DNA from: an uncultured Gammaproteobacteria bacterium | GTDB lineage: Bacteria > Patescibacteriota > Microgenomatia > Levybacterales > GWA1-39-11 | Reading direction: 5' to 3' | Assembly (NCBI GenBank): GCA_964425075.1 | Contig: CAYRKM010000001.1 | Coordinates: forward strand, 106,137 to 170,136 | Length of the DNA: 64,000 bases | Shown: in pieces, positions 3-38,840 of the stretch | How positions within the stretch are numbered: the stretch's first letter is position 1 | How the letters are laid out: the number at the start of each line of letters is the position of its first letter | The notes under the pieces: model-generated | The model's input: only the letters and a program-made list of their open reading frames with translations | Database searches by the model: none | What the model was told of the DNA's origin: nothing | Translations under genes and position numbers: made by a program

Positions 3-614
3 ATTCTTATCACTCAAGACTTCAATGGTTTTTGCCTAACCGCAGTTGACTTCAAGCGAATTGGAGAATCAGAGGCATGTATTGATATCACAACCCCCAT
101 AACCGAAGACCTTTCATATAAGGACATTTTCCTACCACCAACCATAGGACTTTCCAAAAAAGTAATTAATGCAGGTGAAAACGCTGAGATTTATGGTTAT
201 ACAATGCCATTTGCCAAAGTTTATTTGAGCTTAAATGATGAAATTATTACGCTTACTGCTGACTCCACTGGATTTTATAGATATCTATTTAAAAATGTGC
301 CTGCAGGAAGTTATACATTTAGCGCAGCAGCCGAATTGAATGGTAAAAAATCATTGCCGCCCACGAAAAAAGTTACTCTAGAAGCGCGCTCCTTGGTTGG
401 AAGAATTTCTGAAATTCCTAAAGAAGCAGCCGCAAAATTGCCACTCTCTAATATTGGGCTTATTTTGTTGGCATTATTACTCCTAATTGCTATTGGGATT
501 TTGCTATATAAATTAAGATTTAAATTGTGGGTTATTATCGTTGATAAATTTAGAAAAAGACACCGAATGCACCACGATTGGTTCTTAGACGCATGGGATA
601 AAATGGGGAAATAG
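3..614 (+). CDS. 5'-partial CDS (runs off window start): C-terminally membrane-anchored surface-protein fragment
   Basis: Reading frame 3 is open from nt 3 through the ATG at 204 with no stop, so the listed 204..614 ORF is the tail of a longer gene. The C-terminus has a hydrophobic helix (LILLALLLLIAIGILLY) followed by a basic tail (KLRFK..KFRKRHRMHH), a positive-inside anchor. The preceding sequence is beta-rich and Ig-like. Confidence 0.5.
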   Translation: MLITQDFNGFCLTAVDFKRIGESEACIDITTPITEDLSYKDIFLPPTIGLSKKVINAGENAEIYGYTMPFAKVYLSLNDEIITLTADSTGFYRYLFKNVPAGSYTFSAAAELNGKKSLPPTKKVTLEARSLVGRISEIPKEAAAKLPLSNIGLILLALLLLIAIGILLYKLRFKLWVIIVDKFRKRHRMHHDWFLDAWDKMGK

Positions 615-810: not shown

Positions 811-2334
811 TTGCGTGAAAATATCTTGACATTAATCTTCAAATCTGGCTTAAATAGAAAAGACCATATCTTTATGTCTTTCTTATCAGGTGTGCAAAAA
901 ACGCTCTTTCCTGTTGTGCTTGTTGTTGGCGCATTATTTTTTTTGAGTGTAAAACAATCCGACGCCGCCTCATTTTCAAGCGCAAGTGCTACTCTTTCCA
1001 CCTCACGTCCTTCTGCCTCAAGCCCACTTAGTGCTGATGCAGCAAGTGGAGCATCTCAAGCTAGCATTTATAGTAATGGCTCAAGATATCTAGCTTCAGA
1101 CTCTGCCCAACTCTACAGAACCTCAAGTGGTGCGTATATTGATGCAGCGATTGTTGTAGCCTCTCAATCAGCAGCATTTACAACTGTTTACTTTGGTGAC
1201 ACAACTGGAGCAGCAGCTCAAAATGGAACAGATGTTCTCATGGTTCCGATCACTTCACTTCATACAATTCGATTTACTCTTACAACAGCACTTCCTGCAG
1301 GAGGCGATATTATTTTAAATTACCCAGGTAGCGCAAATAACACTGCGTCTCCTTCAGCAACTAGTTTTGCATTCAATAATTTAAATGGGACAGGAGGTTT
1401 ACCTGCAAATGTTGTCACAAATGGCATAACGTGTAACTCAAATTCCTATGTTACTTCTCCTCAAATTATGTGTGAAAGCACTGCTGGAGTAAGCGCCGGA
1501 ACAACTATTACTTTTCTTATTGGTTGTTCTGCCCAAAGCGGAGGTTCCTGTACAACCCAGGTTCCTAGAATGATAAATCCAACTAAATCAGCTGCTGCCG
1601 GAACTGCAGACGTTTGGAAAGTTGTTGTTCAATCTCGCGACTCTAGTGATGTGGTGCTAGATACTTCAACACTTGCTATGGGTGTTATTGAAACGGTTAC
1701 TATTCGAGCTACAGTTGACCCTAGTCTTACATTTACAATTGCAGGTATATCAAATGCCACTGCTGTAAATAATGGAAACACAACCGGATGTTTACAAACA
1801 GAAACTACAAATTCTGGTATTGCCTCAACTGCTACTGAGGTAGCATTAGGAGTTCTTGGACAAATTCCAGGCACTAATACCAAACTTCCAAATATTGCGG
1901 CCCAACTTCTGACAGTTAGTACAAATGGTGCGGCTGGATACTCACTTGTTGCAACATCAAGCGGAAAACTCAGAAATCCTGCAACAGGTTTTTCTATAAA
2001 TAGCTCAACTACCCCCCAAGCCTTCCCTGCTTCTACCCCCTTCTTTGGACTACATGCTTGTGGACTAGATAGTGACGTTACTTTCTGGAATTCTACGGGA
2101 AGCTCTGCGTGCAACAGCTATGTAACCGGCTCAACTGATCCAATTTGTCGTTATGGTTGGCCTACGACAACAGAACCAGTTCTTTTGTCTTCTGACTCTA
2201 CAGGACCAATTGGAAATAGCATTCTTGCAGGAAATGGGCTGACAAGCGTTTCATATGCATCTGCAATTGATGCAACCGTACCACCAGGCGAATACACGAC
2301 AGTTGTAACTTATGTTGCAACACCGTCATTTTAA
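811..2334 (+). CDS. secreted Ser/Thr/Gly-rich surface protein; paralog of 17819..18595 (shared C-terminal ...TYVATPS[FI] end); possibly a divergent WxL-like cell-wall-binding domain
   Basis: A signal peptide is visible if translation starts at the internal Met (MSFLSGVQKTLFPVVLVVGALFFLSVKQSDA, nt 874). The C-terminal half aligns by eye with 17819..18595 (LTVSTNGAAGYSLVATSSGKLRNPATG vs LTISNGSAYGYSVLASENHPLRVNPIG; ends TTVVTYVATPSF vs NVITYVATPSI). No TM anchor. Confidence 0.6.
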   Translation: MRENILTLIFKSGLNRKDHIFMSFLSGVQKTLFPVVLVVGALFFLSVKQSDAASFSSASATLSTSRPSASSPLSADAASGASQASIYSNGSRYLASDSAQLYRTSSGAYIDAAIVVASQSAAFTTVYFGDTTGAAAQNGTDVLMVPITSLHTIRFTLTTALPAGGDIILNYPGSANNTASPSATSFAFNNLNGTGGLPANVVTNGITCNSNSYVTSPQIMCESTAGVSAGTTITFLIGCSAQSGGSCTTQVPRMINPTKSAAAGTADVWKVVVQSRDSSDVVLDTSTLAMGVIETVTIRATVDPSLTFTIAGISNATAVNNGNTTGCLQTETTNSGIASTATEVALGVLGQIPGTNTKLPNIAAQLLTVSTNGAAGYSLVATSSGKLRNPATGFSINSSTTPQAFPASTPFFGLHACGLDSDVTFWNSTGSSACNSYVTGSTDPICRYGWPTTTEPVLLSSDSTGPIGNSILAGNGLTSVSYASAIDATVPPGEYTTVVTYVATPSF

Positions 2335-2429
2335 AAGAGTAGTAAGTATTAAGTAGCAAGTATTAAGGTTTGTCAGATGAAGACTGATATCTACTAGCTA
2401 CATACTACTTTCTACCCGATACCAAACAT

Positions 2430-3404
2430 ATGTCGACTGCCAAAATTTGTAAAACAAAATATTTTATAAAGTCATTCTTCATTACTTCTCTTTTTAGTTT
2501 GTTTTTGGTTTTAACTGCAAAATTTATATTTGCTCAGGAAAACCCCCGCACGATTACAATTGTACCCCCCACTGTTGAAAGAAGTGTGAATCCTGGAGAC
2601 AGGGCTGAAGGTACCCTAAAAATCGTAAATGATAGCAAGACTCCTATAACCTTTAAGGCATACGTGAGAGATTTTATAGTTGAGGATACAATTGGAACAC
2701 CAAAAATCTTAGCAGACGATATATTATCAAAAAAATATTCAGCCTCGTCCTGGATAGCCGTTGTTCCTGATGCTTTTATAGTTTCTCCAGGTACAAGCCA
2801 AACCCTTAATTACTACCTTCAAGTTCCACTTGATGCTCGTCCAGGCGGTAGATATGCAGCAGTTGTATACGAACCTCAAGAGTTAATAGGTGTTCAAGGC
2901 ACAGGTGCTGGTGTTGAAACTCGACTTGGTTCTCTTTTTATCCTAAGAGTGAGTGGAGATGTATTGGAAAACGCAACTGTCGAGAAATTTCAAGCTCCAG
3001 GTTTTGCCGAGTATGGTCCAGTGAGCTTAATAACAGAAATTAAGAACCTGAGCGATGTACACATAAAACCAAAGGGAATAATAACTATTAAAAATATGTT
3101 TGGACAAATTATGGAAACCCAACCTCTTCCTGAACATAATATTTTTCCTGAAGCGGTAAGAAAATTTGAAAATTCAGTTGGAAAAAAATATTTGGCCGGA
3201 AGGTATACTGCAGAGCTTCAAGCAACATATGGAATTAATAACAACCTTACTCTCTACGCAACGACTAACTTTTTTGTTTTTCCTTGGAAAATAGCCGGAA
3301 TTGTATTGCTTGCAGGAATTCTTGCCATTCTTCTTGTTCTTTATATCAAGAAAAGGAAGGAAGAAAAAAAGTCATCTTCAAGCCCCGACCACACAATACA
3401 ATAA
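2430..3404 (+). CDS. cell-surface protein with N-terminal signal peptide and C-terminal TM anchor + basic tail (CscA/DUF916-like architecture); paralog of 18996..19958
   Basis: N-terminal signal (FFITSLFSLFLVLTAKFIFAQ). C-terminal helix IAGIVLLAGILAILLVLYI followed by KKRKEEKK. Blocks of similarity to 18996..19958 (TITIVPPTVERSVNPG vs LSVSVYPPILEVQTTPP; the C-terminal anchors). Confidence 0.6.
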   Translation: MSTAKICKTKYFIKSFFITSLFSLFLVLTAKFIFAQENPRTITIVPPTVERSVNPGDRAEGTLKIVNDSKTPITFKAYVRDFIVEDTIGTPKILADDILSKKYSASSWIAVVPDAFIVSPGTSQTLNYYLQVPLDARPGGRYAAVVYEPQELIGVQGTGAGVETRLGSLFILRVSGDVLENATVEKFQAPGFAEYGPVSLITEIKNLSDVHIKPKGIITIKNMFGQIMETQPLPEHNIFPEAVRKFENSVGKKYLAGRYTAELQATYGINNNLTLYATTNFFVFPWKIAGIVLLAGILAILLVLYIKKRKEEKKSSSSPDHTIQ

Positions 3405-5882: not shown

Positions 5883-6004
5883 AATTTAAGTATGAAATAA
5901 AAATTAACAGGTAGCAAGTAGTAGCGGACTTAAGGTATGGGGAATTATTAAGAGTGATTGGTGGGAGACGACGCGCGATGCGTCGCCCCCCACCGGTTGC
6001 AGAG

Positions 6005-6409
6005 CTACGAAGCAGCGAGTGCTTCCTCGACCTCGAACATGTCGCTGGATCGAAAGAAGAGGAATTTTTGTTTCCATGAGAGACGTTCCACATCAACTGC
6101 GTTGATGATTTCACGTCCCCGCTGGCTATCGTCCCGGACAATCCCTTGGATTTCCGAGAGGCTAATGGGCGCTCCTTCGATCTCGGCATCGTCAAGTTTG
6201 CCCGTGCGGGCATCCCTCAACCCTTCCGAGATGTTCTGGAGCTCTGCCATCAAGATGGCAAAAGCCCCCTCGTCGTACTCCCTGCGGGAGCAGACGACGA
6301 ACCCGAACAGTCGAACAGCCACGAAACACTTCCCTTCTCGGCATAGCCGAATTCGCTCTGCTATATGTCTTACCGAAAGTGACTTTTGAGAACGTGCAAC
6401 CGCGCTCAT
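6005..6409 (-). CDS. hypothetical protein encoded in a GC-rich island (likely horizontally acquired)
   Basis: 134-aa ORF that fills the GC-rich block ~5940-6410. Other-frame ORFs are shadows typical of GC-rich DNA. A CGACGC-GCGAT-GCGTCG hairpin lies just past its stop. Confidence 0.4.
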   Translation of the reverse strand: MSAVARSQKSLSVRHIAERIRLCREGKCFVAVRLFGFVVCSRREYDEGAFAILMAELQNISEGLRDARTGKLDDAEIEGAPISLSEIQGIVRDDSQRGREIINAVDVERLSWKQKFLFFRSSDMFEVEEALAAS

Positions 6410-6570
6410 ACATCACAAACAGTACCTACAATTTTACTCCTTTTGAACCCAAATGTCAAGCTATAGGATGTTTCTGCTACCCAGAAATAGGATAACTTTT
6501 TGAGCAATGACTAATGGTTAATAGCTAATAGTTTTTTTGTATTTCAAACTAATTTTTCTCTTTCGTCGTT

Positions 6571-12869: not shown

Positions 12870-15869
12870 CTATTTAACCACTATATTGAGGATTTTTCCC
12901 TCTACGTATATAACTTTTACAACATCTTGCCCTTCTAAGTACTTTGAAAGTTGCTCTCTTGCCATTTTTTCTATCTTTTCCTTATCCTTTGCCTCAAGAG
13001 ACTTAACCTCAATAATAAGCCTCTTTTTACCGTTAACCTGCACTACAATATCAGCAGTTTCACTCTGAAGCATTGCGCTATCAAAGTCTGGCCATGAGCT
13101 TATGTGAATTGAGTTAGTATTTCCTAATTTCTGCCACAGCTCCTCTGTCATGTGAGGCGCAAATGGGGCCAAAAGCTTTAAATATGTCTCTTTTTCTTCT
13201 CTCATCAACCCTTCTTGAGTAGAAAGAAAGTTATACCATTCCATTAGTGAGGCTAAAGCAGTATTGTTTGTAAACTCTTCTACCTGTTTTGTTACCTTTT
13301 GAATTGTTCTGTGCATAAATCTTTTTGCTTCAATTGAAGCTTCGTTTGTCTCAGGTTTCTCGCTTATGAGTTTCCAAACTTTCTTAAGGAATCTATTCAT
13401 TCCCTCAATTCCACTATCTCTAAAGTCTCCACCCTCAGATAAAGGTGCGATAAACATTAAATAAGAGCGCAAAGTATCAGCCCCATATTTAGAGATATAT
13501 GCATCAGGAACTACCACATTGCCCTTAGACTTTGACATTTTCGCCCCATCTTTTATCACAAGGCCATTAGCAAAAAATCTGGAAAATGGTTCTTCGAAGT
13601 TCAAATATTTCAAATCGTGAAGCGCCATCGTGATAAAACGCGCATACAAAAGATGTAGCACTGAATGTTCAGCTCCGCCAATATACATATTCACAGGAAG
13701 CCATTTTTTAGTAATTTCTGTATCAAAAGGTGCGGTTTGTATATCAATTGATGGGTATCTTAAGAAATACCATGCGCTATCAAGAAACGTATCACTAACA
13801 TCAGTCTCGCGTTTAGCTGGCTTACCACACTTAGGACAATCAACTTCAAAAAACTCAGGATGGTTATCAAGGGGAGCTTTTCCTGTGCCCATTGGTTTCC
13901 AATCTTCTACATCCGGAAGCAAAACAGGCAATTTATCATCAGAAACACAATACCATCCGGGCATGTCATTACGCTCACCCTTATTGTTTGTTGCACAATT
14001 CTCACAATAAATCATCGGAATTGGTGGTCCCCAATAACGTTGTCTAGAGATAAGCCAATCTCTAAGGTGATACTGTATCTTTCTTTTGCCAATTTTCTTT
14101 GCCTCAAGCGAGCTCAAAATTTTATCAGCGTCTTCCGGCATGTGAAAACCATTCCATTCATCAGATCCTATAATTTCTCCTTTTCCCTCAAACGCTTCAC
14201 TTAATTCTCCATTCTTAATTCTTGACTCTTTATCTTGAATTACTTGGACAATCGGTAGATCATATTTCTTAGCAAACTCGAAGTCTCTCTGGTCATGAGC
14301 TGGAACTGCCATAATTGCACCCGTCCCATAGCCTGAAAGAACATAGTCTGCTACAAAAATTCGTATTTTTTTCTGATTGAGTGGATTTATGGCAAAAAGA
14401 CCAGTATCTACTCCAGTTTTTTCTTTTCCTTCTGCAGTACGCTCAATATCCGTCTTGCTCTTCGCCATTTCTATATACTCTTTAACTTCTTGACCATTGT
14501 TATTATTTGCTACTTGCTCCGCAAGCGGGTGCTCTGGTGCAATTACCATAAAAGTTGCCCCATATAATGTATCAGGCCTAGTTGTAAAGACTTTTAGGCT
14601 ATTTAGCAAAACTTCAAGTACCTTTGGCTCAATTTCTCCACAGATGTGATCATCTTTGGACTCAAAATCTATGATTTCTCCACCAATTTGTTCCTTTATG
14701 TAGTCTGCTCTCTCTTTTGGTACAGCAGTATCATTTTTAGCTCTTAACAGTACTATATTCGCCACATTTTTCTTTATGGTTTGTGTATCAAACTGTCCGA
14801 TTTGTTCCTCAAATGACTTATCATGATCTAAAAATCCTGGCTGCATAAATCCGGCTCCTAAAACTAAATTTTTAATAGGCTTTTCCAGCTTTTCAAGAAC
14901 TTTTAAGGCAACGACTGAACCAAGGCTATGCCCTAAAATTACCGTATTTTCATCAATTTGAGCATTTTTTAAAACAAATTCAGCCTGTTCATCTATATTA
15001 GGATTATCAGTATTGGGCAGGTTTTGAGCCCAAACTTTATTGCCCCTCTTTTCTAGTTCTTTCTTAAGCCATGGAAAGAAATTAGCCTCAACTGACCCAG
15101 TATATCCATGCAAAAGAACATAATTAGACTTTTCATCTACTTCAAACTCCACTTCTGCTCCTTCGCTTTTTCCTATCCAATTTCTTTGGGCAATTTTGAC
15201 CTTTTCAGTCCAATTGAGACTCTCAATATTATTTAAAAGTCTCTCAGCGTAATTTGTAATCCTAAAAAACCACTGCTCAAGCTCTTTCTTCTCCACTTTG
15301 CTTCCACATCTCTCACACTCTCCTGCTATAACCTGCTCGTCAGATAACACTGTTTGATCCTGAGGACACCAATTTACGGTCGCCTTTTTACGGTAAGCAA
15401 GGCCATTTTTAAAGAGTTGTGTGAAAAGCCATTGTGTCCATTTATAATATTCAGGGTCATAAGTTTCAATTGTCCTATTCCAATCAAATGAATTTCCAAT
15501 ACTTTTAAGTTGGCGGTAGAAGTTAGACTCTGCTATTTCAGCCTGAACTTTTGGATGACGGCCCACTTTCATGGCATAGTTTTCACTATGGATTCCAAAT
15601 CCATCAAGCCCAATTGGCTCGAAAACATCATTTCCCTTCATTCTCTGGTAACGCCCATATACATCAGCGCCTGTAAAAGCGTACATATTACCCACGTGAA
15701 GACCCTCAGCTGAAGGGTACAGGAACATCATGAGGTTGAAAAAAGGTTTTTTTGCGTTGATTATATTTGGAGAATACAATTTATCACTCTCCCAAACTTC
15801 CTGCCATTTGGCTTCAATTTCTGAGTGGTTATACTCCTTTTTTGAACTGTTTTGTTTATCTTGTGCCAT
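12870..15869 (-). CDS. leuS: leucyl-tRNA synthetase with an inserted alpha/beta-hydrolase (RBBP9/YdeN-type serine hydrolase) domain preceding the CP1 editing domain
   Basis: HIGH-type motif LHVGNMYAFTGADVYGRY. KMSKS motif (KMSKSKGN). CP1 editing signature TTRPDTLYGATFMVIAPEHP...GTGAIMAVPAHDQRD. Anticodon-binding and C-terminal domains present. About 175 extra residues (aa ~250-426) carry GHSLG plus Asp and His. Confidence 0.9.
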   Translation of the reverse strand: MAQDKQNSSKKEYNHSEIEAKWQEVWESDKLYSPNIINAKKPFFNLMMFLYPSAEGLHVGNMYAFTGADVYGRYQRMKGNDVFEPIGLDGFGIHSENYAMKVGRHPKVQAEIAESNFYRQLKSIGNSFDWNRTIETYDPEYYKWTQWLFTQLFKNGLAYRKKATVNWCPQDQTVLSDEQVIAGECERCGSKVEKKELEQWFFRITNYAERLLNNIESLNWTEKVKIAQRNWIGKSEGAEVEFEVDEKSNYVLLHGYTGSVEANFFPWLKKELEKRGNKVWAQNLPNTDNPNIDEQAEFVLKNAQIDENTVILGHSLGSVVALKVLEKLEKPIKNLVLGAGFMQPGFLDHDKSFEEQIGQFDTQTIKKNVANIVLLRAKNDTAVPKERADYIKEQIGGEIIDFESKDDHICGEIEPKVLEVLLNSLKVFTTRPDTLYGATFMVIAPEHPLAEQVANNNNGQEVKEYIEMAKSKTDIERTAEGKEKTGVDTGLFAINPLNQKKIRIFVADYVLSGYGTGAIMAVPAHDQRDFEFAKKYDLPIVQVIQDKESRIKNGELSEAFEGKGEIIGSDEWNGFHMPEDADKILSSLEAKKIGKRKIQYHLRDWLISRQRYWGPPIPMIYCENCATNNKGERNDMPGWYCVSDDKLPVLLPDVEDWKPMGTGKAPLDNHPEFFEVDCPKCGKPAKRETDVSDTFLDSAWYFLRYPSIDIQTAPFDTEITKKWLPVNMYIGGAEHSVLHLLYARFITMALHDLKYLNFEEPFSRFFANGLVIKDGAKMSKSKGNVVVPDAYISKYGADTLRSYLMFIAPLSEGGDFRDSGIEGMNRFLKKVWKLISEKPETNEASIEAKRFMHRTIQKVTKQVEEFTNNTALASLMEWYNFLSTQEGLMREEKETYLKLLAPFAPHMTEELWQKLGNTNSIHISSWPDFDSAMLQSETADIVVQVNGKKRLIIEVKSLEAKDKEKIEKMAREQLSKYLEGQDVVKVIYVEGKILNIVVK

Positions 15870-16489: not shown

Positions 16490-16544
16490 TGCAGACTAGA
16501 AAACCCAGCGACCAATACCCAACCTGAAAGGAAGGGATGAACAG

Positions 16545-17084: not shown

Positions 17085-17124
17085 GGGCGGCACATCGATT
17101 GGCTAAGAAACCTACGCGACTAGA

Positions 17125-17213: not shown

Positions 17214-17822
17214 ATGCCGCTACTCTTTCAATCAATATCAATTCTCTCATCCATATTCTTTGTTTATTTAGTACAAAACTCTGTATTTAGCAGTTATTCT
17301 TCGTATCTGCTAGCCCTCCTAATTATCTTTTCAATTATCTATACTACGCTCAAAAAACGCTCAAAATCAGCTAATACTCTTTTTTCTGGCACTCCTATGG
17401 AGTTGTTTGCTAGTAGCAGCATAATTCTTTTGATAATTAGCCTTACAGGCAATATTTCCTCCCCTCTCTTCTTCTTTCTATACTTTTTATTAATAATGCT
17501 TGTTTTTCTTTCAGGCCCAATTAGCACTCTCATATTTGCTTTGGGATTAACTCTATACTTTTTACCTGAAACCTTAAATAATCCTGTCCCTGAAAACATT
17601 GTAAAACTAGCTTCATTTATTCTTTTAGCTCCAATCGGATACTTTATAGGGCGGGAATTTGAAAACAGAAAGGTGCTTGATGAAAAAATTGAAGCTAAAA
17701 CTGAGGAAATTATACAAGAAGCTCAAAATCTTAAAGAAGCGTCAAAGCAGCCTGATGAAGAAGAAGCTTTGGACGAAATTATCGAAGAGGCAGAAAGTTT
17801 GAGGCAAGACAGTGAAAAATGA
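17214..17822 (+). CDS. polytopic membrane protein with acidic coiled-coil C-terminal tail, hypothetical; ATGA-overlaps the next gene
   Basis: Four to five hydrophobic helices. C-terminus EEEALDEIIEEAESLRQDSEK. Stop overlaps the start of 17819..18595. Confidence 0.5.
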   Translation: MPLLFQSISILSSIFFVYLVQNSVFSSYSSYLLALLIIFSIIYTTLKKRSKSANTLFSGTPMELFASSSIILLIISLTGNISSPLFFFLYFLLIMLVFLSGPISTLIFALGLTLYFLPETLNNPVPENIVKLASFILLAPIGYFIGREFENRKVLDEKIEAKTEEIIQEAQNLKEASKQPDEEEALDEIIEEAESLRQDSEK

Positions 17823-18595
17823 ATATGAAAACTGCTATTAAACACCTCTATTCTCCCATGGGCACAATTGCTTTCTTAAGCATAAACTTTGCCCTTTTTG
17901 CTCTATTTTATGCTCAGACTATTGATGCTCAAAGTCGAATGTCAAACGATAGGTTCATTATTAGGTTCGGAAATCTTAACACCGCAGCTGGAAATTCTTC
18001 CAATTCACAATATGGCTTGGGACAAACTGTTGGACAAATAGCCCCAGGCCTTTATAGTGGCACAAATTACAAGGTTCGCGCGGGTTTCCAGTACATACAT
18101 AGCATCATACCCTTTGCCTTCTCTATTTCGTCACAATTTGTTGATTTTGGGCCAATTACACCAGGCGCTGCAATTACCCGTACAAATGTACTTACAATTT
18201 CAAATGGCTCAGCTTATGGATACTCAGTTCTTGCTTCAGAAAACCATCCTTTGAGGGTAAATCCGATAGGCGTAGATATTCCCGACACAACGTGTGACTC
18301 TGGAACTTGTAACGAACAAACAGCCTCAGCCTGGACAAGTGTACTCACTTATGGCTTTGGCTACCGCTGCGATAACTTAGTCGGGGCTGACTGCCAATCT
18401 GGATTTTCATCAAGTGATAATTATCGTCAGTTTGCCTCAAGTAGTTCTGGAGAATTAGCATTTCCTGTAATGCGTGGTGTAAATGTAGGCAGAAACATCC
18501 AGTCACAGATTACATATAAGGTAAATATTTCCTCAACTCAGCCTGCGGGATTATATGAAAATGTCATTACATACGTAGCTACTCCCTCTATCTAA
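17819..18595 (+). CDS. secreted surface protein, paralog of 811..2334 (C-terminus ...ITYVATPSI); possibly a divergent WxL-like domain
   Basis: Signal peptide (IAFLSINFALFALFYAQTIDAQS). C-terminal half aligns with 811..2334, see above. Confidence 0.6.
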   Translation: MNMKTAIKHLYSPMGTIAFLSINFALFALFYAQTIDAQSRMSNDRFIIRFGNLNTAAGNSSNSQYGLGQTVGQIAPGLYSGTNYKVRAGFQYIHSIIPFAFSISSQFVDFGPITPGAAITRTNVLTISNGSAYGYSVLASENHPLRVNPIGVDIPDTTCDSGTCNEQTASAWTSVLTYGFGYRCDNLVGADCQSGFSSSDNYRQFASSSSGELAFPVMRGVNVGRNIQSQITYKVNISSTQPAGLYENVITYVATPSI

Positions 18596-18995
18596 ATTTA
18601 TAAGTGAAAAGTTGCATCTTCGGAGTTAAAAGTCGCAATTTGAGCTTGGATTTGTATAATTGTAGTATATTTTGTGCGTAGTAAAGGCTAGGAATTTAAA
18701 AAACGTTGATATATCAATCCAAAGTCTATACTCTACTTGTTATCACTTTGACCATCTTTTTGCCATTTGCAATTTTGAAAACCAAGCAAACTAAATGATA
18801 TACTTTGATATATATATTTTCACAGAGTGCTTTTCACACTTAATCTCGGAAGTAAAATAAATCTATTACCGCATAACTCGAAAAATAATACAAACTTGGG
18901 CTTATATATAACTCCGCTAGAATACTACTTCTGTGAAACATAAACCCGGGAACATAAAACTTTAACTTTTAGATTATTTACAGTAGTATGAATAT

Positions 18996-19958
18996 ATGAA
19001 GCGGTTGTTTTTTATTCTTTCTTTAAGCTTATTCTTTTGCATCATTTCTTCGCAAAATGTTAGCGCCCAAGCTCTTTCTGTTAGTGTTTATCCACCCATT
19101 CTTGAAGTTCAAACTACACCTCCATCCTCACCAACGGCTCCAATTACAATTCAAAACCTAGGGGAAACAGATATTGCACTTTCAATTCAACTAATTCCCC
19201 TCAAAATGAACCCAAACGGAACAGGGGACGTTTTATTTTTCCCCGATGCACTAAATCAAGGCTTTTATGGCTACTACAAGGGTAGGATTCAATTCTTAGT
19301 TGATGACGTAAAAACTGAAAAAGTAACACTTCAAGCTCAAGAATCTAAGCAAGTAACCCTTAACATTAATCTTAAAAAGGGAGATCCTCCAGGAGACTAT
19401 TACTATGGAATTGTTTTCCTTAGCGAAGGAAAAACACTTGAGGACACATCTTTAACCTCACTTCCTGCAGGGATTTCTACCAATCTTCTACTCTCAGTTG
19501 GACCCAAAAAACCGTCGGTTGGAGGCATAACTGAATTCAGTACTTCAGCTTTTAAGAACAATGGACCGGTTGAATTTACTCTAAAGCTTCATAACGGCAG
19601 CGAGCACCTTATCAGTCCAACTGGAAAAGTATCAATAAATAATATGCTTGGTAAAAAGGTTGCCTCAATTGACATTCTACCCCAATATATTCTTGCTCAA
19701 AGCGATCGTTACTTAATAAATCAATCTTCATCAACCTCTGCTACTTTAAGCACAAATGAGACTCCAAAGGTTATTTGGAATGAAAAATTTCTTTTAGGAT
19801 TTTATACTGCAACAGCCAATATAAGGCTTGAAGAAAATGGAAATATCTTAACAGAAAAAACCTACTTCTTTGCTTTTCCTATTTATCTCTTCTTTGGTGT
19901 CGCAATTGTATTCTTTGTTCTTGCTGGAATTTATCTTAGAGTGAAGAAAAAGATGTAA
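18996..19958 (+). CDS. cell-surface protein with signal peptide and C-terminal TM anchor (CscA/DUF916-like architecture); paralog of 2430..3404
   Basis: Signal LFFILSLSLFFCIISSQNVSAQA. C-terminal FAFPIYLFFGVAIVFFVLAGIYL followed by RVKKKM. Confidence 0.6.
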   Translation: MKRLFFILSLSLFFCIISSQNVSAQALSVSVYPPILEVQTTPPSSPTAPITIQNLGETDIALSIQLIPLKMNPNGTGDVLFFPDALNQGFYGYYKGRIQFLVDDVKTEKVTLQAQESKQVTLNINLKKGDPPGDYYYGIVFLSEGKTLEDTSLTSLPAGISTNLLLSVGPKKPSVGGITEFSTSAFKNNGPVEFTLKLHNGSEHLISPTGKVSINNMLGKKVASIDILPQYILAQSDRYLINQSSSTSATLSTNETPKVIWNEKFLLGFYTATANIRLEENGNILTEKTYFFAFPIYLFFGVAIVFFVLAGIYLRVKKKM

Positions 19959-20613: not shown

Positions 20614-23600
20614 ATGGAATTCCTTGAACTATTCAAAAGACAACTTACACAAACTTCAAATGGTATTTCAAAAATAAGCCTGAAGAACTATCTTTCTGAT
20701 ATTCGTCACTTTATTAACTGGTTTGAGTACACCACAGGGAACACTTTTTCACCAAAAAATATTACCGCAGAGGTAATTGAGCTATATATTGCATCCCAGG
20801 GAGCAGTAATTTCAGACGGAAACCTTTCAACCCAAGACAAACTTTCGCCAAGCTCTATGAAAAGACATCTTTCCTCGCTTCGAAAGTTTGTCTCGGTGCT
20901 CAAAAAAGAAAACCTACTTGAAGAAAATCCGTTTGAGGAAATTAACCAGACAAATGAAGAACAGAATTACGATTATTGGCACTTTGATTCATTTAAAGAT
21001 TATTTGCTCCAAAATAATGCCTCAAAATTAACCGTAAAAAATTATCTTTCTGATATAAAAGGTTTTGCAAGTTGGTACGAACAGGCAATATTACCTACGC
21101 TTATTTCCCCTCTCACCTCAACTAATGGTGCTTATCGGATCTCTCAAGAAATAGTTCAGGAATATAAAGACAGATTGTTTAATATACAATCATCAGCTCC
21201 ACGCACAATTAACCGCAAACTGTCTTCACTCCGCCGATATTTGGAGTTTGGAACGAATAAGGGCTTTATTAATCCTGGAGAAATAGTTCTACCTTCTATC
21301 CAAATAGGGAAAGAGGAGGCAGAACCTGTAAAGATTCAGCTAAAAGATCTTAATCAAACTCAAACTTTAGAAACAAAAAGCTATTCTTCCTTTCCTCCAG
21401 CAAGACTTCTTCAAAAGCTAGTTATTTTCCCTTATTTACTTCTTGAAGATGCCGTTGCCTCAAAAGTCGCAACAATTATGACTGGAAAAGAAATGATTGC
21501 AGGAATTGCACTTTCTCAATTAGATAAAGTGAAAATGAGCACTCGCGCTATAGTCAATGCTCAAAATCAATCAATTGACGCGATTTTGGGCGTAAGAAAT
21601 GTAAAAAAGGAATTCTATGCTCCTCACCAAGTACAATTATCTGGACTCCCTTTCCACAAAAAATTACTTTATCATGCACGATATACTAGACCAAAATGGT
21701 ATAAAACATATCATAGTTATCCATTTGTACATTATGCCCATTTTGCACTCCTTATAATCTTTGCAGTTGGAGTTGGGGTTGCAGCTTATCAGAATTTGGT
21801 AGGAAAAAATCAAAGACCAACCTTTGCCGCCCCCACGGCTCCACCGAGAATACTTTCATTTCAGGGAAGACTAACTGACGCAAGTGATAACCCAATTACA
21901 AGTGCAACGGATATCCGGTTTGCAATTTATAATGATCTTTCAGCATCAGGCGCTGCTCTTTTGTGGCAAGAAGTTCACTACGTTGTAACCCCTGACCAAG
22001 ATGGAATATTCTCCGTACTTTTGGGAACAAATGATGCAATACCTTCAACTGTATTTTCAGATAATGCAGGAACTTATCTTGGTGTTACAATCAACCAAAC
22101 ATCAGAACTTACGCCACGTCAAAGAATTGCCGCAGTTGCATACGCTACTAATTCTGAACAGCTTCAAGGAATGCCTCCTATTACCGCAGGTGGGGCTGGA
22201 ACCTCAAATGTTGTACTAGCACTTGATTCATCAGGTAATCTAACCATTGGTGGAAGCGCAGCTCCAACCTTTACAGCCTCGGGGGGTCAATTCAGACTAT
22301 CGGGTCAGCCTCTTGTTCTAAATACAAATTCAAGTTCAAATGGAAATATCGTTCTTGCTCCTGATGGACTTGGAAGGATAGATCTTCAAAAACCACTAGT
22401 AAATAGTGGAACTTCAGGGAACATTACTCCAGGGGGAGTTGAGGTAAATGATAAATTTGGAGTTCTTGCAACAGAATCGGGAGTCGCATCATTTGTTATC
22501 AACAACAATGGTTCAAGCGACATTTTTACAGCCTCATCATCGGGATCTCCTCGCTTTACTATCTCAACAACAGGCGCTCTTACTATTCCAACATATAACA
22601 CAAATGGTGGAATCTTCTATGCAAATGGTTCGGGAGTTGTTGCACAGACAACTGCAGGAAGCTCGGGGGAATGTTTGCAGTCAATTGGAGGAGGAACACC
22701 AACTTGGGGATCTTGCGGAAGCGGCAGCGGAAGTCTTTGGAGATTATCAAGTGGCGCTTTATCTCCCATAAATGATACTGCGGATGTATTGATTGGAAGT
22801 AATGCTACAGCAAGCGCGAAATTCGCATTCATAAATGTTGCTGGGGGAACACCAACAGCTTCAATCTCTGCAAGTAGCGGAAACAATTGGACAACATTAA
22901 GCGGAGATGGAATTTTGGGAACAACAAACAAACAAACACTTTCTATAGGAAACAGCTCGACAGGAATTATTGCAATTAATTCTCCCGAGAACAGTAAAAC
23001 CTCAATTGGAACAGGCTCAACACTTGGAACACTTAAGATTTCAGGTCAGTCTCCGGGAAAAGCTTTAGTAAACCTCCAATATCTAGGGTCTGGTCAAAAT
23101 ATTTTGGTTGCATCAAATTCCGCCGGAACCAATGTCTTTACTATCGAGGAGGACGGAGACATTATTGTGGGAAATGCGGGTGCAGGCAAATTGACAGCTG
23201 CAATAATTGACCCTTATCTAATCCAAAATCAATACACGTCAGTTACTCCCGAACTTATTTTCCAAACAATGGCAGCTACAAGTGGAGACTTTATATATAA
23301 AAACCAATCAACCGAGCTTGCACGCCTTGCCCAAGCCGGACAATTTCAACTTCCAATAACAGGCTCTTCAGGAGGACTTGTAATTGGAGCTGACACACAG
23401 CTTTTTAGAGGCTCTGCCGATAGGCTTGATTTAGCATCAGGCGACTCATTTAATCTTGTTTCGGGTAGCATTCAAATTGGCGGAACTACGGTTATTGACT
23501 CCTCACAAAATGCAACATTCAGCAGCCTAACTGTTACTGGTGGATGTACGGGTTGTGTAAGCGCATCAGATTCACCTTTTAAGGTATTAAGTGGTGCAAT

Positions 23601-26600
23601 TGTACCACTCAACTCAACGCTTGACTTCACTCTTGGTGGTCAATCAAGCGCATCAGCAAAATTTGCAGTACTTAATATCGGCACAGGAACACCCACAGCT
23701 TCAATCTCTGCAAATTCTGGAGATAATGCTCTATATATAACAGGAGACGGTTCTCTTGCAACAACCAATAGACAAAGCCTAACAATTGGAAATTCATCAA
23801 CATATAACACAACGGGAAATGTGCTGATAAATTCTAATGCAACCGGCAATGTTGGGTTAAGAACCGCAACGCCTACAAGTTTCAACGTAGAATTTGCGGG
23901 AAGCCTTGGACCAGCAGTAGATAATTCCTCTGTTCTTGGATCTGCATCAAGGAGATTAAATTCTATATATTTAGGTGACGGTGGTCTCCAAGCTGTAGGC
24001 AATGCCGGAACTTCCGGATCTGTAAATATCAATACAGCTGCAAGTGCTGTTACGGTCACTAGATACGGACAAAGGATATTGAATAATACGTTAAATACTA
24101 CAACAGACGGAATTGATAAATATGGACTTTATATCAACAACACAGGTTCTTTTACAGGACTGACAGGAACTTCTACCAATAACTACTCTTTATACATCTC
24201 TACACCTTCAGGTGCTGATAACAATTATTCTATATATTCAGCGGGTGGAACAAATTACCTTGCAGGAAATACAGGACTTGGTACAACAACACCGACAGCT
24301 CTTCTTGATGTAGCAGGTACTGCTTCTGTTTCAGGGGCTTTGAAGCTATATGGAACTCCTACCATCCAATCTACTGCAAATCAAACATTGACACTAGGTG
24401 GAGATACAACTGGAAGTATTGTGCTTTCACCTCTCAATGGTTCGGGGACAATTCAACTTACAAATTTTACTACAAACGGTGGCTTAATATATACTAATGG
24501 ATCAGGTGTACTGGCTCAAACCGGTGCAGGAAGCGCTACTCAATGTTTGCTTGGAGGCACTACTCCTACTTATGGCAGTTGTGCAACTGGAACAACCGTA
24601 ACACCTTTCCAAGAATTAACTGGTGCAATAGTACCAAATAATTCAACTCTGGACTTCCTAATTGGAGGGCAAGCAACAGCAAGTGCTAAATTTGGAATAT
24701 TAAATATAGCCGGAGGAACACCAACCGCCTCAATTAGTGCAAATAATGGGAATATAGCAACTTACCTTGCCGGTGACGGGACTCTTGCAACTACAAATAG
24801 GCAAACTTTAACTATTGGTAATTCCTCTACATACAACACAACGGGAGAAGTACTAATAAATCCTAATGGAACTGGAAATGTAGGCGTCGGGACAACAAGC
24901 GCAAGGTCAAAATTCCATGTTGCCAATGCTTACTCAGGCCAAGCAACACCTAATGCCTCTTCTATCTTAACAATTGAAAACAATGCTAATGCATATTTAA
25001 GTTTTCTTACACCGGCCAATGTTCAGAGCGGTATCCTTTTTGGAAGTCCTACAAATTCAGCTCAAGGACAAATTACCTACAATCATTCTTCAAATTATTT
25101 AAATTTTTATACAGGAGGAGCTGATAGGGCTAGAATTACAAGCACGGGTTTTGGAATCGGCATGACTTCACCAATATCTCAACTTCATGTTTCAAGAAGT
25201 GCAGCGGCTACGGGCAAAGCATTGGCTGTTTTTGATCAAACGGAAAGTCAAGATATAATAACAGCTTCTGCTTCTGGTATTACAAAGTTTGCAATTACAA
25301 ACAGTGGGGTTTTGCAACTTGTTGGTGGACAAACTTCAGATATTGATACTTTAACAAATGCTACTCTAAATATTGGGGCGACAAATGCCACCACTATTTC
25401 TATTGGTCGATCAAGCCAAGGTATTACACTTCCTGGATTTACTGGTCAAAATGGAATACTTTATGGAACTTCAGGAACTGGAGTATTAGCTCAAGCGACT
25501 ACTGCCTCTACTGGTCTTTGTCTACTCTCAGGAGCCGCAAATCCAGCTTGGGGAACTTGTCCAACAACAGGAAATTCAAGCTCAAACTGGACACTGAACT
25601 CAACAGATGGAACTCTTTATCCAATAAATAGTACTCTTGATGTATTAATAGGTAATACTGCATCAACTTCTGCCAAATTTGCATTCTTAAATGTTGCTGG
25701 AGGAGTACCCACAGCTTCAATTTCTGCAAATACAGCTGATAACAATACTTTCTTAACAGGAGCTGGTAACCTTGCAACAACCAACAAACAAACCCTAACA
25801 CTTGGGGGCAGCACAACAGGAGGAATAGTTATTGATTCAGGAAGCTCCTCAATAAATCTTGCGGATGATACCTCTATAACAGGTAATATTACTGGCTCAG
25901 GTACAACTGGACTTACTCTCACGGGTGCTGGAGCTGGAATTACCTTCTCAGGAAGTGGACTTCATGAAATAGGTGCCTCATCAGGAACTCTTCGAATTGG
26001 AACACACACACTAACCGGCGCAATAACCGGAGGAAATCAAAATATCAGCTCAATTGGTAACATCTCAGCGAATTCTTCCTCAAATACATTAACTGGTTTT
26101 GGAACAATTGGAACTTCTGGAACTACTGCTTTCGTTGGCACCAACCTAACCCTAGCAGGTGCTGCAACTGATATAACTTCAGGTGCCAATCAAGACTTGG
26201 CAATAACTGCAAATGGTACAGGAAACCTAATACTTACCACAGATTTTGATACTAGCGTAAAAGTTGGTACATCAAATAATATCATGGCACCTCTTTCGGT
26301 ATCTGGAGGTATCGGATCTAATGCTGGATTTATCCTAGATCAACTTAATGATGGGGACTTATTCACTGCCTCTGCTGCTGGGGTTACTAAATTTACTTTC
26401 ACAAACGGCGGGTCGCTTAACCTTACAGGTGGTCAAACAATAGATACTTTAGCTTCCGGAACTCTAGGAATTGGCACTACAACAGCTACTACTCTTACGT
26501 TGGGCAGAAGTGGACAAGGGATTACACTTCCAGGCTTTACGGGTCAAAATGGAATACTTTATGGAACTTCAGGAACTGGAGTACTTGCACAGGCCACGAC

Positions 26601-30052: not shown

Positions 30053-32185
30053 TCATTTAATTATGTAGCTTATTTCAATTGCTGTAAAACCAGAGCGTAC
30101 AATGGGGTCAAAAACAGGTGGTTTGGGTGAAAGGCTTGGCTTAGTTTCAAACTGTTCAATGTAAAAAACGATGTTTCGGTAAGTATCGGGTTGACGACTA
30201 AAATAAATCGGTAAAATTTGTTTTGATAAACTGTTGTCATAAAAAGATAAAAATACATAAGGCGAATTAATATGATTTTTAGCGAAATTCACGGCGTCTT
30301 CAGTTTCTCTTTGATTTAAACCAAAATTTATTGCATATTCACGAATTGTTTTATCAATACTTGAGGCATCTATAACTTTTCCATATGCAGGCCGCTCAAG
30401 TTTCATATCTGGATTGTAGTTAAAAGATATATTCTCAACGGATTTTCCGTTTGCAACAAAGGAGCCATTATTGCCTAAAGTAATTTTGAAACCTTCCTCA
30501 GGATTGTAGGCAGTATTTACGGAATAAATTGGTATTCCAACGGACACCTTCAAATTTGTTCCCTCTTCTCCGTACAAATATAACGGGCATGTTCCTGAGC
30601 ACATATTTGTAGCATTGTTTACGCAAGAAGCTTGCTCAGCACCATCAGTAAGAGTTCCACAGGCTTGTGCTGCTGCTGTTTGTGTACAGTCCAATTGAGA
30701 AGTATTATTTGCGTTCGTTGATGAAGGGAAATTATTCCTTGCGATTCTTACAGGTGCAAGCGTTGGTTTTACAACAAATGTATCAAGTTGCAATTGTTCT
30801 CTTTGCGGTTTGACTGCGTTTCTACCCAAAACTGCTGAATCAAAAAAATTTGCATCTGTTAGTGCTATGAATTGTATAAAAGAATCATTATGATTTACAG
30901 CTACACGCTCACCTGTTTTTTGGTCAAAAATGGATACCGCACTAAGAGACTGTTCGTATCTTGCTCCAAGATTTCCCATAGCAGATTGACCGGTAGCAAC
31001 GCTTGTTAGTAAGAGTTTTCCGTTAGATAAAGAGGTTTTAATGGTGTTTACAGATGTTTTAGATGAATCATCATACGCAATGTCAAAATCTATCTTTTTT
31101 GAAGAATTTTGACTAAATGAATAGCTGTGTGTTTCAAGAGATTTCGTTGTAGAGTTTACAACTTGGTATAGAATGTCTCCTGTTGTTAAATCAAAAGTAG
31201 CTGAAGTAAAGACATCATCTCCTTGAGCTGTTATTAATTTTGTCCTGCTTTTTGTTGTAACATCTAATGTTTCTATGGTATTTGCAACCGAAAATACTCT
31301 TTTTGCTCCATTCACAATTTGAGTTCCGTCACCTCTCGCCCCATCATAACCCACAAAAACAAATTTTGATTCATCCTCTGAAAGCGTGGGTTGATTAGCA
31401 TAGGTCCCATCTTGCATAGAAGTAAGATCCCCCCTGCTTGTTCCTGTAAAATTAGAAACGCTCATGCCATATGACCATCCCATGCCAGCGTTTGGTATAA
31501 ATTTATTAACATAAATTTCACCACTACTTGTAATTGCAATGGGATAGCGAATTGTGTTTCCGGGAGTTGCAACCTCGTCATAAATTAAGTTTTTTTGTCC
31601 AGGATTTTGTATATCAATGCTATAAATCCTTGATTTTGCGTCTATAAGCTGAGGGGAATCTGAGGCTAGACTTAATTCCCAGGTTGTTATATATCTACCG
31701 TTTTTAGACACAAAGTAGTCATCTATTCCAAAATTCTCTTCTGCAGTTACAATCACTGTTTCTTTTTTAGAAGAAATATCATAAAGAACAAGAGACTTTG
31801 CATAGTCTCGCGCATCTGTATCTTTTAGAAATAAAAGCTCGTTATTCGATAGAACTTTTACGTTCTTAATATTGGTTGGTAGAGTTGCAAGTGTGGCAGC
31901 TGTATTTGTTGAAAGATCCGTAACTTCAATCACAGAGGAGCTTCCTGCCCAATATCCATACACTAAAGCATTATCGGACAAAAATTTTTTTTCAACTGTC
32001 TGTTTTTGTTGGTTTTGAGAAGACTTGCTATTGTTTTGACGGGCTGAATTCCATGCAAACGCGCCTCCAAATAAAATAATCACAACTAGCAAAACCACTA
32101 CTCCTTTTATATTGGTTCTAGGATCTACTTTCTGAAACCAAGAACTTTGGTTGACTTGTACCTGGGGCTGATTATTTTCTTCCAC
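30053..32185 (-). CDS. N-terminally TM-anchored beta-propeller (TolB/WD40-like) protein with Cys-containing conserved C-terminal domain; tandem paralog of 32235..34370
   Basis: N-terminal TM (GVVVLLVVIILFGGAFAW). Repeated propeller-blade-like segments. C-terminal ~110 aa nearly identical to the paralog. Confidence 0.55.
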   Translation of the reverse strand: MEENNQPQVQVNQSSWFQKVDPRTNIKGVVVLLVVIILFGGAFAWNSARQNNSKSSQNQQKQTVEKKFLSDNALVYGYWAGSSSVIEVTDLSTNTAATLATLPTNIKNVKVLSNNELLFLKDTDARDYAKSLVLYDISSKKETVIVTAEENFGIDDYFVSKNGRYITTWELSLASDSPQLIDAKSRIYSIDIQNPGQKNLIYDEVATPGNTIRYPIAITSSGEIYVNKFIPNAGMGWSYGMSVSNFTGTSRGDLTSMQDGTYANQPTLSEDESKFVFVGYDGARGDGTQIVNGAKRVFSVANTIETLDVTTKSRTKLITAQGDDVFTSATFDLTTGDILYQVVNSTTKSLETHSYSFSQNSSKKIDFDIAYDDSSKTSVNTIKTSLSNGKLLLTSVATGQSAMGNLGARYEQSLSAVSIFDQKTGERVAVNHNDSFIQFIALTDANFFDSAVLGRNAVKPQREQLQLDTFVVKPTLAPVRIARNNFPSSTNANNTSQLDCTQTAAAQACGTLTDGAEQASCVNNATNMCSGTCPLYLYGEEGTNLKVSVGIPIYSVNTAYNPEEGFKITLGNNGSFVANGKSVENISFNYNPDMKLERPAYGKVIDASSIDKTIREYAINFGLNQRETEDAVNFAKNHINSPYVFLSFYDNSLSKQILPIYFSRQPDTYRNIVFYIEQFETKPSLSPKPPVFDPIVRSGFTAIEISYIIK

Positions 32186-32234
32186 AGTTAAATAGTAGAC
32201 TTAAAGATATATTCATGTCAAGAAAATTTAATGA

Positions 32235-34370: not shown

Positions 34371-34501
34371 ACTTCTATACTAGAAGTTTTTAACCTATTG
34401 TGTCAACTTTTTGACTTTACCCCGACTAGATCGTGGTTGACCCCGTTAGAAATTTTGAGAAATATTTCCTTTGATTTTTCAAACCAGTTTTTTTAACGGG
34501 G

Positions 34502-35089
34502 TTGACAAATATATTTACCTCCTTCTACTATATATGTATGGAACAGAACGTTGAAGTGCCCACAACTGCTAGCTCCACATCATTCCTCTCACGATATGTA
34601 ATGATTACATCTATTCTTGTTATCATCGGCGTTGCAGGAATTGCTATTTATTTACTTTTAAATAAAGGATCAATAAAACCTACCTCAAATAATCAAACTC
34701 TCGCCTCCTCCCCAAATTGCACGAATGAAAAAATTTATACTGATGTAAAAGAAGCGTTGCTTTTAGAAGGGCAAAAAATTTGCTACATTGATGCAAAAGC
34801 CCCAGACAAAGAATATGTTTTTCCTAGTGATATTGTCAAACATGCAAATACCCGAAATCTAGTCTATCTTTCACTTGATGGATATAACTTATCAGCTATG
34901 AGAGATTCACTTGAAGTTTTACAGGATTTAGAAGTTCTTAAACTCAAAAATGCACATTTGTCCGCACTTCCAAGGGGAATAGACAAACTTACAAAACTTA
35001 AAGAGCTCGATCTTTCAGGTAACGAATTCACTGAAACAGGAAAAAACGAAATCCACCAGAAATTCCCAAATGTAAAAATCAGCTTCTAA
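34502..35089 (+). CDS. TM-anchored leucine-rich-repeat (LRR) protein
   Basis: TM ITSILVIIGVAGIAIYLLL. LRR units LVYLSLDGYNLSAM / LEVLKLKNAHLSALPRGIDKLTKLKELDLSGNEF. The true start may be the internal Met (MEQNV.., nt 34538). Confidence 0.55.
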   Translation: MTNIFTSFYYICMEQNVEVPTTASSTSFLSRYVMITSILVIIGVAGIAIYLLLNKGSIKPTSNNQTLASSPNCTNEKIYTDVKEALLLEGQKICYIDAKAPDKEYVFPSDIVKHANTRNLVYLSLDGYNLSAMRDSLEVLQDLEVLKLKNAHLSALPRGIDKLTKLKELDLSGNEFTETGKNEIHQKFPNVKISF

Positions 35090-35202
35090 AGGAATCCGCA
35101 TTAAGTATTAAGATAGGTATTGAGTTTTGGTTTCAGGGATTCGGCTTGAACTTTTTTTAAACCCCACCGGACATACTACATACAATATACTTATATACCA
35201 AC

Positions 35203-38829: not shown

Positions 38830-38840
38830 ATATTAATATG

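Follow-up and report, generated by a model that had tools for sequence, protein, structure and literature searches.

The 64,000-nucleotide stretch analyzed here (hereafter the window; positions 106,137 to 170,136 of contig CAYRKM010000001.1, assembly GCA_964425075.1, assigned to Levybacterales of the Microgenomatia) carries two separated pairs of surface-protein genes, which are most probably the halves of a distant, Microgenomatia-type Pam pilus cluster, split in this genome, whose fibre would be assembled by chaperone-assisted donor-strand exchange without an usher. Each pair encodes a secreted, pilin-like protein (type 1) followed by a membrane-anchored, chaperone-like protein (type 2), and all four genes lie on the forward strand. 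The first pair comprises the large pilin, whose open reading frame (ORF) opens at 811 and ends at 2334, and the WxLIP/PapD-like chaperone 1 (2430..3404, 324 amino acids). The second comprises the PamT-like small pilin (17819..18595, 258 amino acids), in which a signal peptide and a short N-terminal segment precede a Pam-type C-terminal domain, and chaperone 2 (18996..19958, 320 amino acids), a paralogue of chaperone 1. The reference system is that of Candidatus Mycosynbacter amalyticus, whose PamA/PamB filaments have been solved by cryo-electron microscopy (Troman et al. 2026 preprint, 10.64898/2026.03.03.709456). In these filaments the inter-domain linker is the donated strand; PamT is described as a domain-only tip pilin and PamC and PamD as PapD/FimC-like chaperones with a C-terminal transmembrane (TM) helix, and homologues were reported in Saccharimonadia and Microgenomatia, the latter having diverged so far that finding them took a language-model search (10.64898/2026.03.03.709456).

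The four ORFs were confirmed with the order and orientation given in an earlier note on this DNA, and hydropathy profiles bore out the architecture it had assigned to all four proteins. Each of them begins with a hydrophobic, signal-peptide-like segment. The type-1 proteins are secreted and anchorless, with a summed share of Ser, Thr, Gly, Asn and Ala of 54% and 45%, and end in TYVATPSF and TYVATPSI; both type-2 proteins end in a TM helix with a Lys/Arg tail behind it. The large pilin probably starts at ATG 874 (486 amino acids) rather than at TTG 811, because in two independently made assemblies of this strain the gene callers picked the former and homologues are about 485 amino acids long. 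The cassette had been described as duplicated. The two copies are indeed paralogous, but old: BLASTP aligns the type-1 proteins with 25% identity (E 6e-8), confined to the C-terminal approximately 146 residues, and the type-2 proteins with 24% identity (E 1e-10) over their full length. Judged by these alignments, the pairs are ancient paralogues, not the product of a recent duplication.

The type-1 proteins have no matches in Pfam. Among 18,950 NCBIfam models, the only consistent matches were those to NF058579 (PamT) and NF058581 (Pam_pilin_C). In particular, Pam_pilin_C matched residues 335-486 of the large pilin (E 4e-5) and the small pilin (E 8e-5), and PamT matched residues 23-256 of the small pilin over model positions 10-239 of 241 (37.9 bits, E 1.3e-9). 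The matches extend through the families of homologues: of the 35 members of the small-pilin family, 34 matched PamT (best 2e-15) and the same number matched Pam_pilin_C (best 6e-10), and Pam_pilin_C was found, with no competing family, in 24 of 51 members of the large-pilin family (best 2e-8). Since the curated cut-offs are 55 bits for Pam_pilin_C and 240 bits for the PamT equivalog, the small pilin with its 37.9 bits is homologous to PamT and falls outside the equivalog. By these scores, the type-1 proteins are remote homologues of the Pam pilin domain and not members at the level used by NCBI. The C-terminal domain of the large pilin and the small pilin are also joined by HHalign (97%, E 1e-10), so that BLASTP and HHalign together define a domain common to both pilins. 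Nothing useful came from searching the PDB sequences with the pilins, either as single sequences or as profiles, and the pilins of two loci labelled Saccharibacteria (L080 and L082), considered as a bridge to bona fide Pam, had no NCBIfam Pam matches.

The distribution of conservation along the pilins resembles that reported for PamA/PamB, where the linker and the C-terminal strand are likewise best conserved, and conserved Cys pairs lend further support to the Pam reading. The AlphaFold2 model of the large pilin shows the domain layout described for PamA/PamB, with a predicted local distance difference test score (pLDDT) of 83.7, exceeding 90 in the C-terminal domain. The strand linking the two domains, ATVDPSLTFTIAG (1708..1746, residues 279-291), is a candidate donor strand and the conservation peak of the protein, with a mean information of 3.6 against 2.9 in the N-terminal and 3.2 in the C-terminal domain; A279, D282, L285, F287, I289 and G291 are invariant in the family. 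Together with the C-terminal strand TVVTYVATPSF, it is among the best-conserved segments of the large pilin. Of its eight cysteines, C218, C226, C306 and C396 are invariant, and the small-pilin family has four invariant cysteines of its own. A Berkelbacteria metagenome-assembled genome (MAG; locus L084, 41..4723) encodes a 1560-amino-acid protein that ends in the same C-terminal motif, …YTTEVLYILTGTF, with a 390-amino-acid pilin and a chaperone downstream, which suggests that Pam-type subunits can be very large and bear long N-terminal extensions, as large WxL proteins do.

Of the type-2 proteins, chaperone 1 was modelled. In its AlphaFold2 model (pLDDT 85.9), a signal helix is followed by two beta-sandwiches (residues 42-174 and 182-283) and a TM helix at residues 286-315 (3285..3374), which coincides with the hydropathy maximum of 3.0; the corresponding TM segment of chaperone 2 is at residues 288-318. 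This is the architecture given for PamC and PamD in the preprint, a likeness established by description. Structure prediction and comparison had been proposed in the earlier note; the best Foldseek matches of the model in the PDB are the Enterococcus faecium WxLIP structures 9i1y and 9i25 (E 3e-12), the latter listed as WxLIP "bound to long WxL", followed by the chaperones CfaA (5e-10), Caf1M, CsuC, FimC and EcpB (to 1e-7), and then by RbmA.

Profile comparisons pointed in the same direction. The type-2 family profile aligned with the solved EfmWxLIP1 across both domains in order (E 2e-4). PF06030 (WxLIP_PGBD, DUF916) was the top Pfam family, matched below threshold by 26 of the 53 family members (16.6 bits against a threshold of 27.3; E 0.008 for chaperone 2), and PF11797 (DUF3324) was matched by none of the 53. 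For a direct comparison, we assembled eight genuine WxLIP genes with their WxL neighbours from plasmids of Enterococcus, Lactococcus and Lactiplantibacillus. HHalign related the type-2 family to these eight proteins with a probability of 97.7% (E 2e-12, 288 columns), and with 86.5% (E 4.6e-6) after removal of the signal peptide and the TM helix. Domain 1 alone gave 91%, and domain 2 alone was weak (E 0.011) but collinear. A hidden Markov model (HMM) of the Firmicute WxLIPs recovered 57 ORFs in the loci from the candidate phyla radiation (CPR), the best of those listed being chaperone-sized and at the matched position. This profile evidence identifies the type-2 proteins as distant homologues of CscA/WxLIP, the DUF916-DUF3324-TM protein encoded in WxL clusters, and their predicted fold and their homology to WxLIP/PapD-like chaperones are among the points that the present analysis establishes. 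They belong to a superfamily of 14,039 clusters at 50% identity (E<=1e-3).

The best-conserved element of the type-2 family is a hairpin, PGG[HR]YAAVVY...GTGAGV.T..G.LF, which in chaperone 1 reads LDARPGGRYAAVVY...GTGAGVETRLGSLF (2829..2951, residues 134-174 of domain 1) and contains a loop of low confidence (residues 154-163, pLDDT <50). By analogy, this hairpin is the candidate functional counterpart of the G1 donor strand of PapD, that is, the strand-donating element. The two paralogues, one after each pilin gene, could instead be permanent structural bases or adhesins that stay bound to the fibre or its subunit and connect the pilus with the cell, perhaps also with the host. The C-terminal TM helix, which keeps these proteins at the membrane, would suit such a role, as would the presence of one paralogue per pilin type and the description of WxLIP as a stable partner linking bacterial and host surfaces. 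However, the fold matches to chaperones of the chaperone-usher systems span both domains, and the role of an anchor is better suited to a different TM-anchored protein, whose linkage is even tighter and whose N-terminal strand resembles the linker (see below). We therefore regard permanent bases as quite improbable.

The relationship of the type-2 proteins to WxLIP raises the question of their partners. The earlier note had compared the gene pair with the WxL/CscA pairing of Firmicutes, and this comparison held for one half: type 2 is related to CscA/WxLIP by profile, Foldseek and HHalign, but type 1 gave no sign of a WxL domain in any test. PF13731, the WxL domain that had been proposed as a query, matched none of the 51 type-1 family members scanned individually. 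HHalign comparisons of the small-pilin, large-pilin C-terminal domain and broader C-terminal-domain superfamily profiles with small, large and combined WxL alignments, built from real Enterococcus, Lactococcus and Lactiplantibacillus plasmid sequences, yielded probabilities of at most 1.8%; negative controls scored like the WxL comparison itself, positive controls at 97-99.5%, and the z-score against column-shuffled alignments was about 0 (-0.3 to 0.3). A WxL HMM found nothing among 1978 CPR ORFs from 80 loci, and the WxL chain of 9i25 was absent among the top structural matches of the pilin models. We thus reject the WxL identity of the type-1 proteins at the sequence level. A collinear resemblance of motifs, FG / GY-x-L / ITYVATP in the pilins and FG / GW-x-L / LTWxL..P in WxL proteins, has no statistical support and serves as a lead only.

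These results bear on two further readings. Under the first, the locus would encode a WxL/Csc-type surface complex in which the WxLIP-like protein holds the type-1 proteins non-covalently and displays their adhesive N-terminal domains, without long filaments. The homology of type 2 to WxLIP is in agreement with it, as is the Firmicute-like order of a small domain-only protein, a WxLIP-like protein and a large protein sharing the C-terminal domain. Nevertheless, this complex appears unlikely: the type-1 proteins match Pam_pilin_C and not WxL, homologues of the system in the Pam family were seen as filaments by cryo-electron microscopy, the cluster has no LPXTG protein, and polymerization better explains why the linker strand is conserved. 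The second reading is broader. The Pam pili of CPR bacteria and the WxL/Csc clusters of Bacillota could be two branches of one ancient, usher-less system of monoderm-type envelopes, in which a membrane-tethered two-domain chaperone (PamC/D in one, WxLIP in the other) supplies the strand that is lacking in the C-terminal domain of a small and of a large secreted partner. The C-terminal domain of the Pam pilins would then be a WxL domain that has diverged, GYxLxA / ITYVATP replacing GWxLxV / LTWxLxxxP. We hold this as a tentative proposal, on the doubtful side: its chaperone half agrees with the profile comparisons, and its partner-domain half failed every sequence test. If it were true, WxL proteins might also undergo donor-strand exchange or polymerize.

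The assignment to a Pam-type pilus cluster is further borne out by gene order. We retrieved 80 loci with the chaperone profile and scanned them with HMMs of the cluster components. The chaperone was present in all 80 loci, the anchor protein described below in 74, in each case adjoining the chaperone, the large pilin in 44, the small pilin in 37, the giant protein in 26 and the polytopic membrane protein in 24. In about 25 loci of related Microgenomatia genomes the genes follow the order membrane protein > small pilin > chaperone > large pilin > chaperone > anchor > giant protein, which answers positively the question, posed in the earlier note, whether relatives keep the pair together. A sub-order like that of the window, anchor > large pilin > chaperone (> second pilin), recurs among the closest relatives, in approximately 17 of them. 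The loci are without exception from CPR MAGs, those of Levy-, Shapiro-, Woese- and Beckwithbacteria prevailing over Berkelbacteria and others, and this distribution matches the reported presence of Pam in Microgenomatia; the nearest loci point to a Levybacteria-like bacterium as the source of the window.

The Levybacteria MAG locus L005 provides an example. There, LeuRS is followed by a membrane protein 37% identical to that at 17214..17822, the small pilin (61%), a chaperone of 332 amino acids (34% to 18996..19958), the large pilin (49%), a chaperone (56% to 2430..3404), a 292-amino-acid TM-anchored immunoglobulin (Ig)-like protein (41% to 3..614), and finally a giant Phage_int_SAM protein homologous to that starting at 20614. 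In the window, the two halves are separated by a HisK...ComEC-ComEA-LeuRS block. Since related genomes hold both halves contiguously, both gene pairs belong to one conserved cluster, of which each forms a half. The homologues of each family number in the hundreds to thousands and the order is kept across genomes, far beyond chance. A third alternative, by which the type-1 products are unrelated secreted glycoproteins or S-layer-like wall proteins located by chance next to TM-anchored Ig-like proteins, could draw on their Ser/Thr/Gly/Asn-rich composition and on the generic character of their Ig-like fold matches. It is hardly credible in view of the specific Pam model matches, the strict gene order across about 60 loci, and the conserved linker and C-terminus.

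Three further genes in the window belong to the conserved neighbourhood. The first, at 3..614 (forward strand), is truncated by the window start and encodes the C-terminal 203 amino acids of an Ig-like protein. Its C-terminal anchor had been predicted earlier and was found as a TM segment at residues 142-180, but the family is different from that of the type-2 proteins. The fragment is 41-56% identical to 292-amino-acid proteins of L005 and L003, the approximate full length in relatives, and shows weak Ig-like matches to CarboxypepD_reg and Ca_tandemer. Proteins of this family combine a signal peptide with Ig-like domains and a TM helix at the C-terminus, and the orthologues share a conserved N-terminal strand, A-[ST]-V-G-x-F-x-L-x-V-S-G, similar to the pilin linker. 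PamR is described as a membrane-anchored, RbmA-like terminator with an N-terminal donor strand; the strand and the architecture seen here fit a candidate PamR-like terminator that would tether the pilus to the membrane.

The second gene, at 17214..17822 (forward strand), encodes a polytopic membrane protein of 202 amino acids with an acidic C-terminal tail and is a candidate accessory component. At its stop codon the gene overlaps with the beginning of the small pilin gene, and the protein has weak matches to TIGR04561, "membrane protein with charged tail". Its L005 counterpart, cited above, is a 211-amino-acid protein at the same position (5898..6533), and in the census loci that have the family it lies upstream of the small pilin. 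The Pam preprint (10.64898/2026.03.03.709456) lists no component of this kind. The third is a giant surface protein of 2987 amino acids (20614..29577, forward strand). It has two cytoplasmic N-terminal Phage_int_SAM domains, according to Pfam matches, one TM segment near residue 385 and, after it, approximately 2600 residues of Gly/Thr/Ser-rich repeats. Conservation beside the cluster concerns its N-terminal part. A "tail fibre-like protein" is reported as a central neighbour of pam operons (10.64898/2026.03.03.709456), and by analogy the giant protein may be its equivalent here and a putative member of the system.

The above analysis suggests the following model, in which homology and architecture were observed in this work, and strand complementation, polymerization, the tip and anchor roles and the order of subunits are inferred because of the precedents of Ca. 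M. amalyticus Pam, chaperone-usher and WxL systems. All components would be exported by Sec. The C-terminal domain of each pilin, presumably an incomplete Ig-like fold, would first receive the missing strand from a dedicated two-domain chaperone, which would donate it from its conserved hairpin while staying fixed in the cytoplasmic membrane through its C-terminal helix. Donor-strand exchange would follow: the chaperone strand would give way to the conserved linker strand of the pilin next in line, and a linear filament would grow without an usher. The small PamT-like pilin and chaperone 2 would start the fibre at its tip, the large pilin and chaperone 1 would form the shaft and elongate it, and the TM-anchored Ig-like protein would end and tether the fibre by donating its N-terminal strand.

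Several observations weigh against this interpretation. The NCBIfam scores of the type-1 proteins, 23-40 bits, are all under the curated cut-offs, and NCBI would leave these proteins unnamed. Fold searches with the whole pilins return generic Ig-like matches only. The small pilin retains a linker-like strand, IPFAFSIS, though PamT is described as having none, and this makes its tip-only role uncertain. Unlike the reported pam neighbourhood, the window contains no ATP synthase genes. Finally, the chaperone function of PamC/D is itself an AlphaFold-based proposal of the preprint, and the likeness to PamA-E, PamC/D and PamR of M. amalyticus was drawn from their description and the NCBIfam models.

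The earlier suggestion that a pairing of this type would be new for this kind of organism has been overtaken: the system is not new in kind, because Pam pili are known from the 2026 preprint and the NCBIfam models derived from it. What appears to be an unreported link is the homology of Pam-type chaperones to WxLIP, together with the parallel order of small protein, WxLIP-like protein and large protein. The Pam preprint (10.64898/2026.03.03.709456) never mentions WxL or DUF916, and no paper in the literature searched combines DUF916/DUF3324 with PapD, chaperone-usher systems or CPR. With the assignment to a Pam-type pilus, four "hypothetical" families that are very common in Microgenomatia acquire a likely function, a host-contact pilus made by chaperone-assisted donor-strand exchange, and the full conserved cluster is laid out, including the membrane and anchor proteins that are separated in the window. 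WxLIPs are proteins of enterococci, listeriae and lactobacilli, and the link to them could relate the little-understood WxL clusters, which act in virulence and adhesion, to a pilus-like chemistry of strand exchange; it is also relevant to how chaperone-usher assembly arose in evolution.

Other features of the window were recorded in passing. The small pilin and chaperone 2 genes are separated by an AT-rich, ORF-less stretch of 400 bp (18596..18995), in place of 26 bp at the same junction in L005, and a promoter-like site with an extended -10 element is found within it at 18775-18804; promoter and terminator scans gave nothing informative, and Rfam and tRNA scans of the window had no matches. 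The leucyl-tRNA synthetase (LeuRS) gene (12870..15869, reverse strand, 999 amino acids) contains an inserted alpha/beta-hydrolase (Ser_hydrolase, PF06821, E 1.4e-11) at residues 250-404, just before the editing domain; the 766-amino-acid orthologue in L005 does not have this insert. Islands of 50-57% G+C in a genome of 38% G+C were seen at 3501-4100, 5901-6400, 16101-17100 and 46901-48100. In these islands ORFs on both strands overlap, and neither an Rfam match nor a counterpart in related loci was found; the region 3480-4120 has a folding z-score of -3.6, and the ORF 47182..47913 has a lipoprotein-like N-terminus. A DUF11 surface protein (45909..46607, forward strand) ends in ...KKIPETGPEALSLIALIPAGLAGFALRKKKFN, with an LPXTG-like (IPETG) signal, a hydrophobic segment and a basic tail, which suggests a sortase substrate in this CPR genome. 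A second surface-appendage neighbourhood is located on the reverse strand at 30053..40332; at 38841..39839 it encodes a type IV pilin-like protein bearing an N_methyl motif, and it further includes a 171-amino-acid ORF, a 1208-amino-acid F5/8 type C (discoidin) protein and two proteins of approximately 710 amino acids with no family match. An assignment of ATP synthase genes to 55-59 kb proved wrong; the genes there encode pyruvate kinase, a PIN-TRAM protein and a RadA-like ATPase.

Compared with known surface appendages, the system differs from sortase-dependent pili, as the type-1 proteins have neither a sorting signal nor a hydrophobic tail and no sortase was found among the neighbours scanned. 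It also differs from the environmental fibrils TLP-1a/b (CryoSeek, PDB 9ikj/9ikk), single-domain protomer tubules in which an N-terminal donor strand comes from protomer n+4; the sequence identity is 15%, and their closest predicted homologue is from a Flavobacteriales bacterium. With chaperone-usher pili (PapD/FimC/Caf1M/CfaA; Pap/Fim/CFA-I) it shares the two-domain Ig-like chaperone fold (Foldseek E 5e-10 to 1e-7), pilins with a probable incomplete Ig-like domain and an invariant extreme C-terminus, and presumed donor-strand complementation and exchange. The likeness is at the level of fold only, since no Pfam match to the usher (PF00577), PapD-family (PF00345/PF02753) or fimbrial models was found in the cluster or the window. 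Unlike chaperone-usher pili, it has no usher and no outer membrane, its chaperone is tethered to the membrane and not periplasmic, and the donor strand would be an internal linker and not an N-terminal extension.

The WxL/Csc clusters of Bacillota consist of a small WxL protein, WxLIP (DUF916-DUF3324-TM, CscA) and a large WxL protein (PDB 9i1y, 9i25), and WxLIP is predicted to complete the beta-sandwich of its partner with a strand; in the Firmicute plasmid clusters (L087-L093, from Enterococcus, Lactococcus and Lactiplantibacillus) an LPXTG protein precedes these three genes in the order small WxL > WxLIP > large WxL. The type-2 proteins resemble WxLIP in fold, domain 1 sequence, domain order and TM anchor, and in both systems a C-terminal domain is common to the small and large secreted proteins; the gene order, small > WxLIP-like > large, is an architectural parallel only. 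In contrast, the partner domain here is not recognizable as a WxL domain and lacks the two Trp-x-Leu motifs of the latter, with Tyr at superficially similar positions. There are two chaperone paralogues instead of one, an LPXTG protein is absent, the hosts are CPR bacteria and not Bacillota, and the Pam relatives polymerize into filaments, which is not reported for WxL proteins.

From Pam of M. amalyticus the cluster differs in its remote sequence similarity, below the NCBIfam cut-offs, and in having one large pilin (two in some relatives) in place of PamA, PamB and PamE. It is divided in two in the window, includes the conserved polytopic membrane protein as an extra component, lies away from ATP synthase genes, and its small pilin keeps a linker-like strand. 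Nevertheless, both systems are confined to CPR and combine a small domain-only pilin with larger pilins that have an N-terminal beta-sandwich and a conserved linker. Both encode a pair of paralogous chaperone-like proteins in which a signal peptide precedes two beta domains and a C-terminal TM helix, and in both a TM-anchored Ig-like protein is part of the operon, conserved Cys pairs are present and a large fibre-like gene lies next to the cluster.

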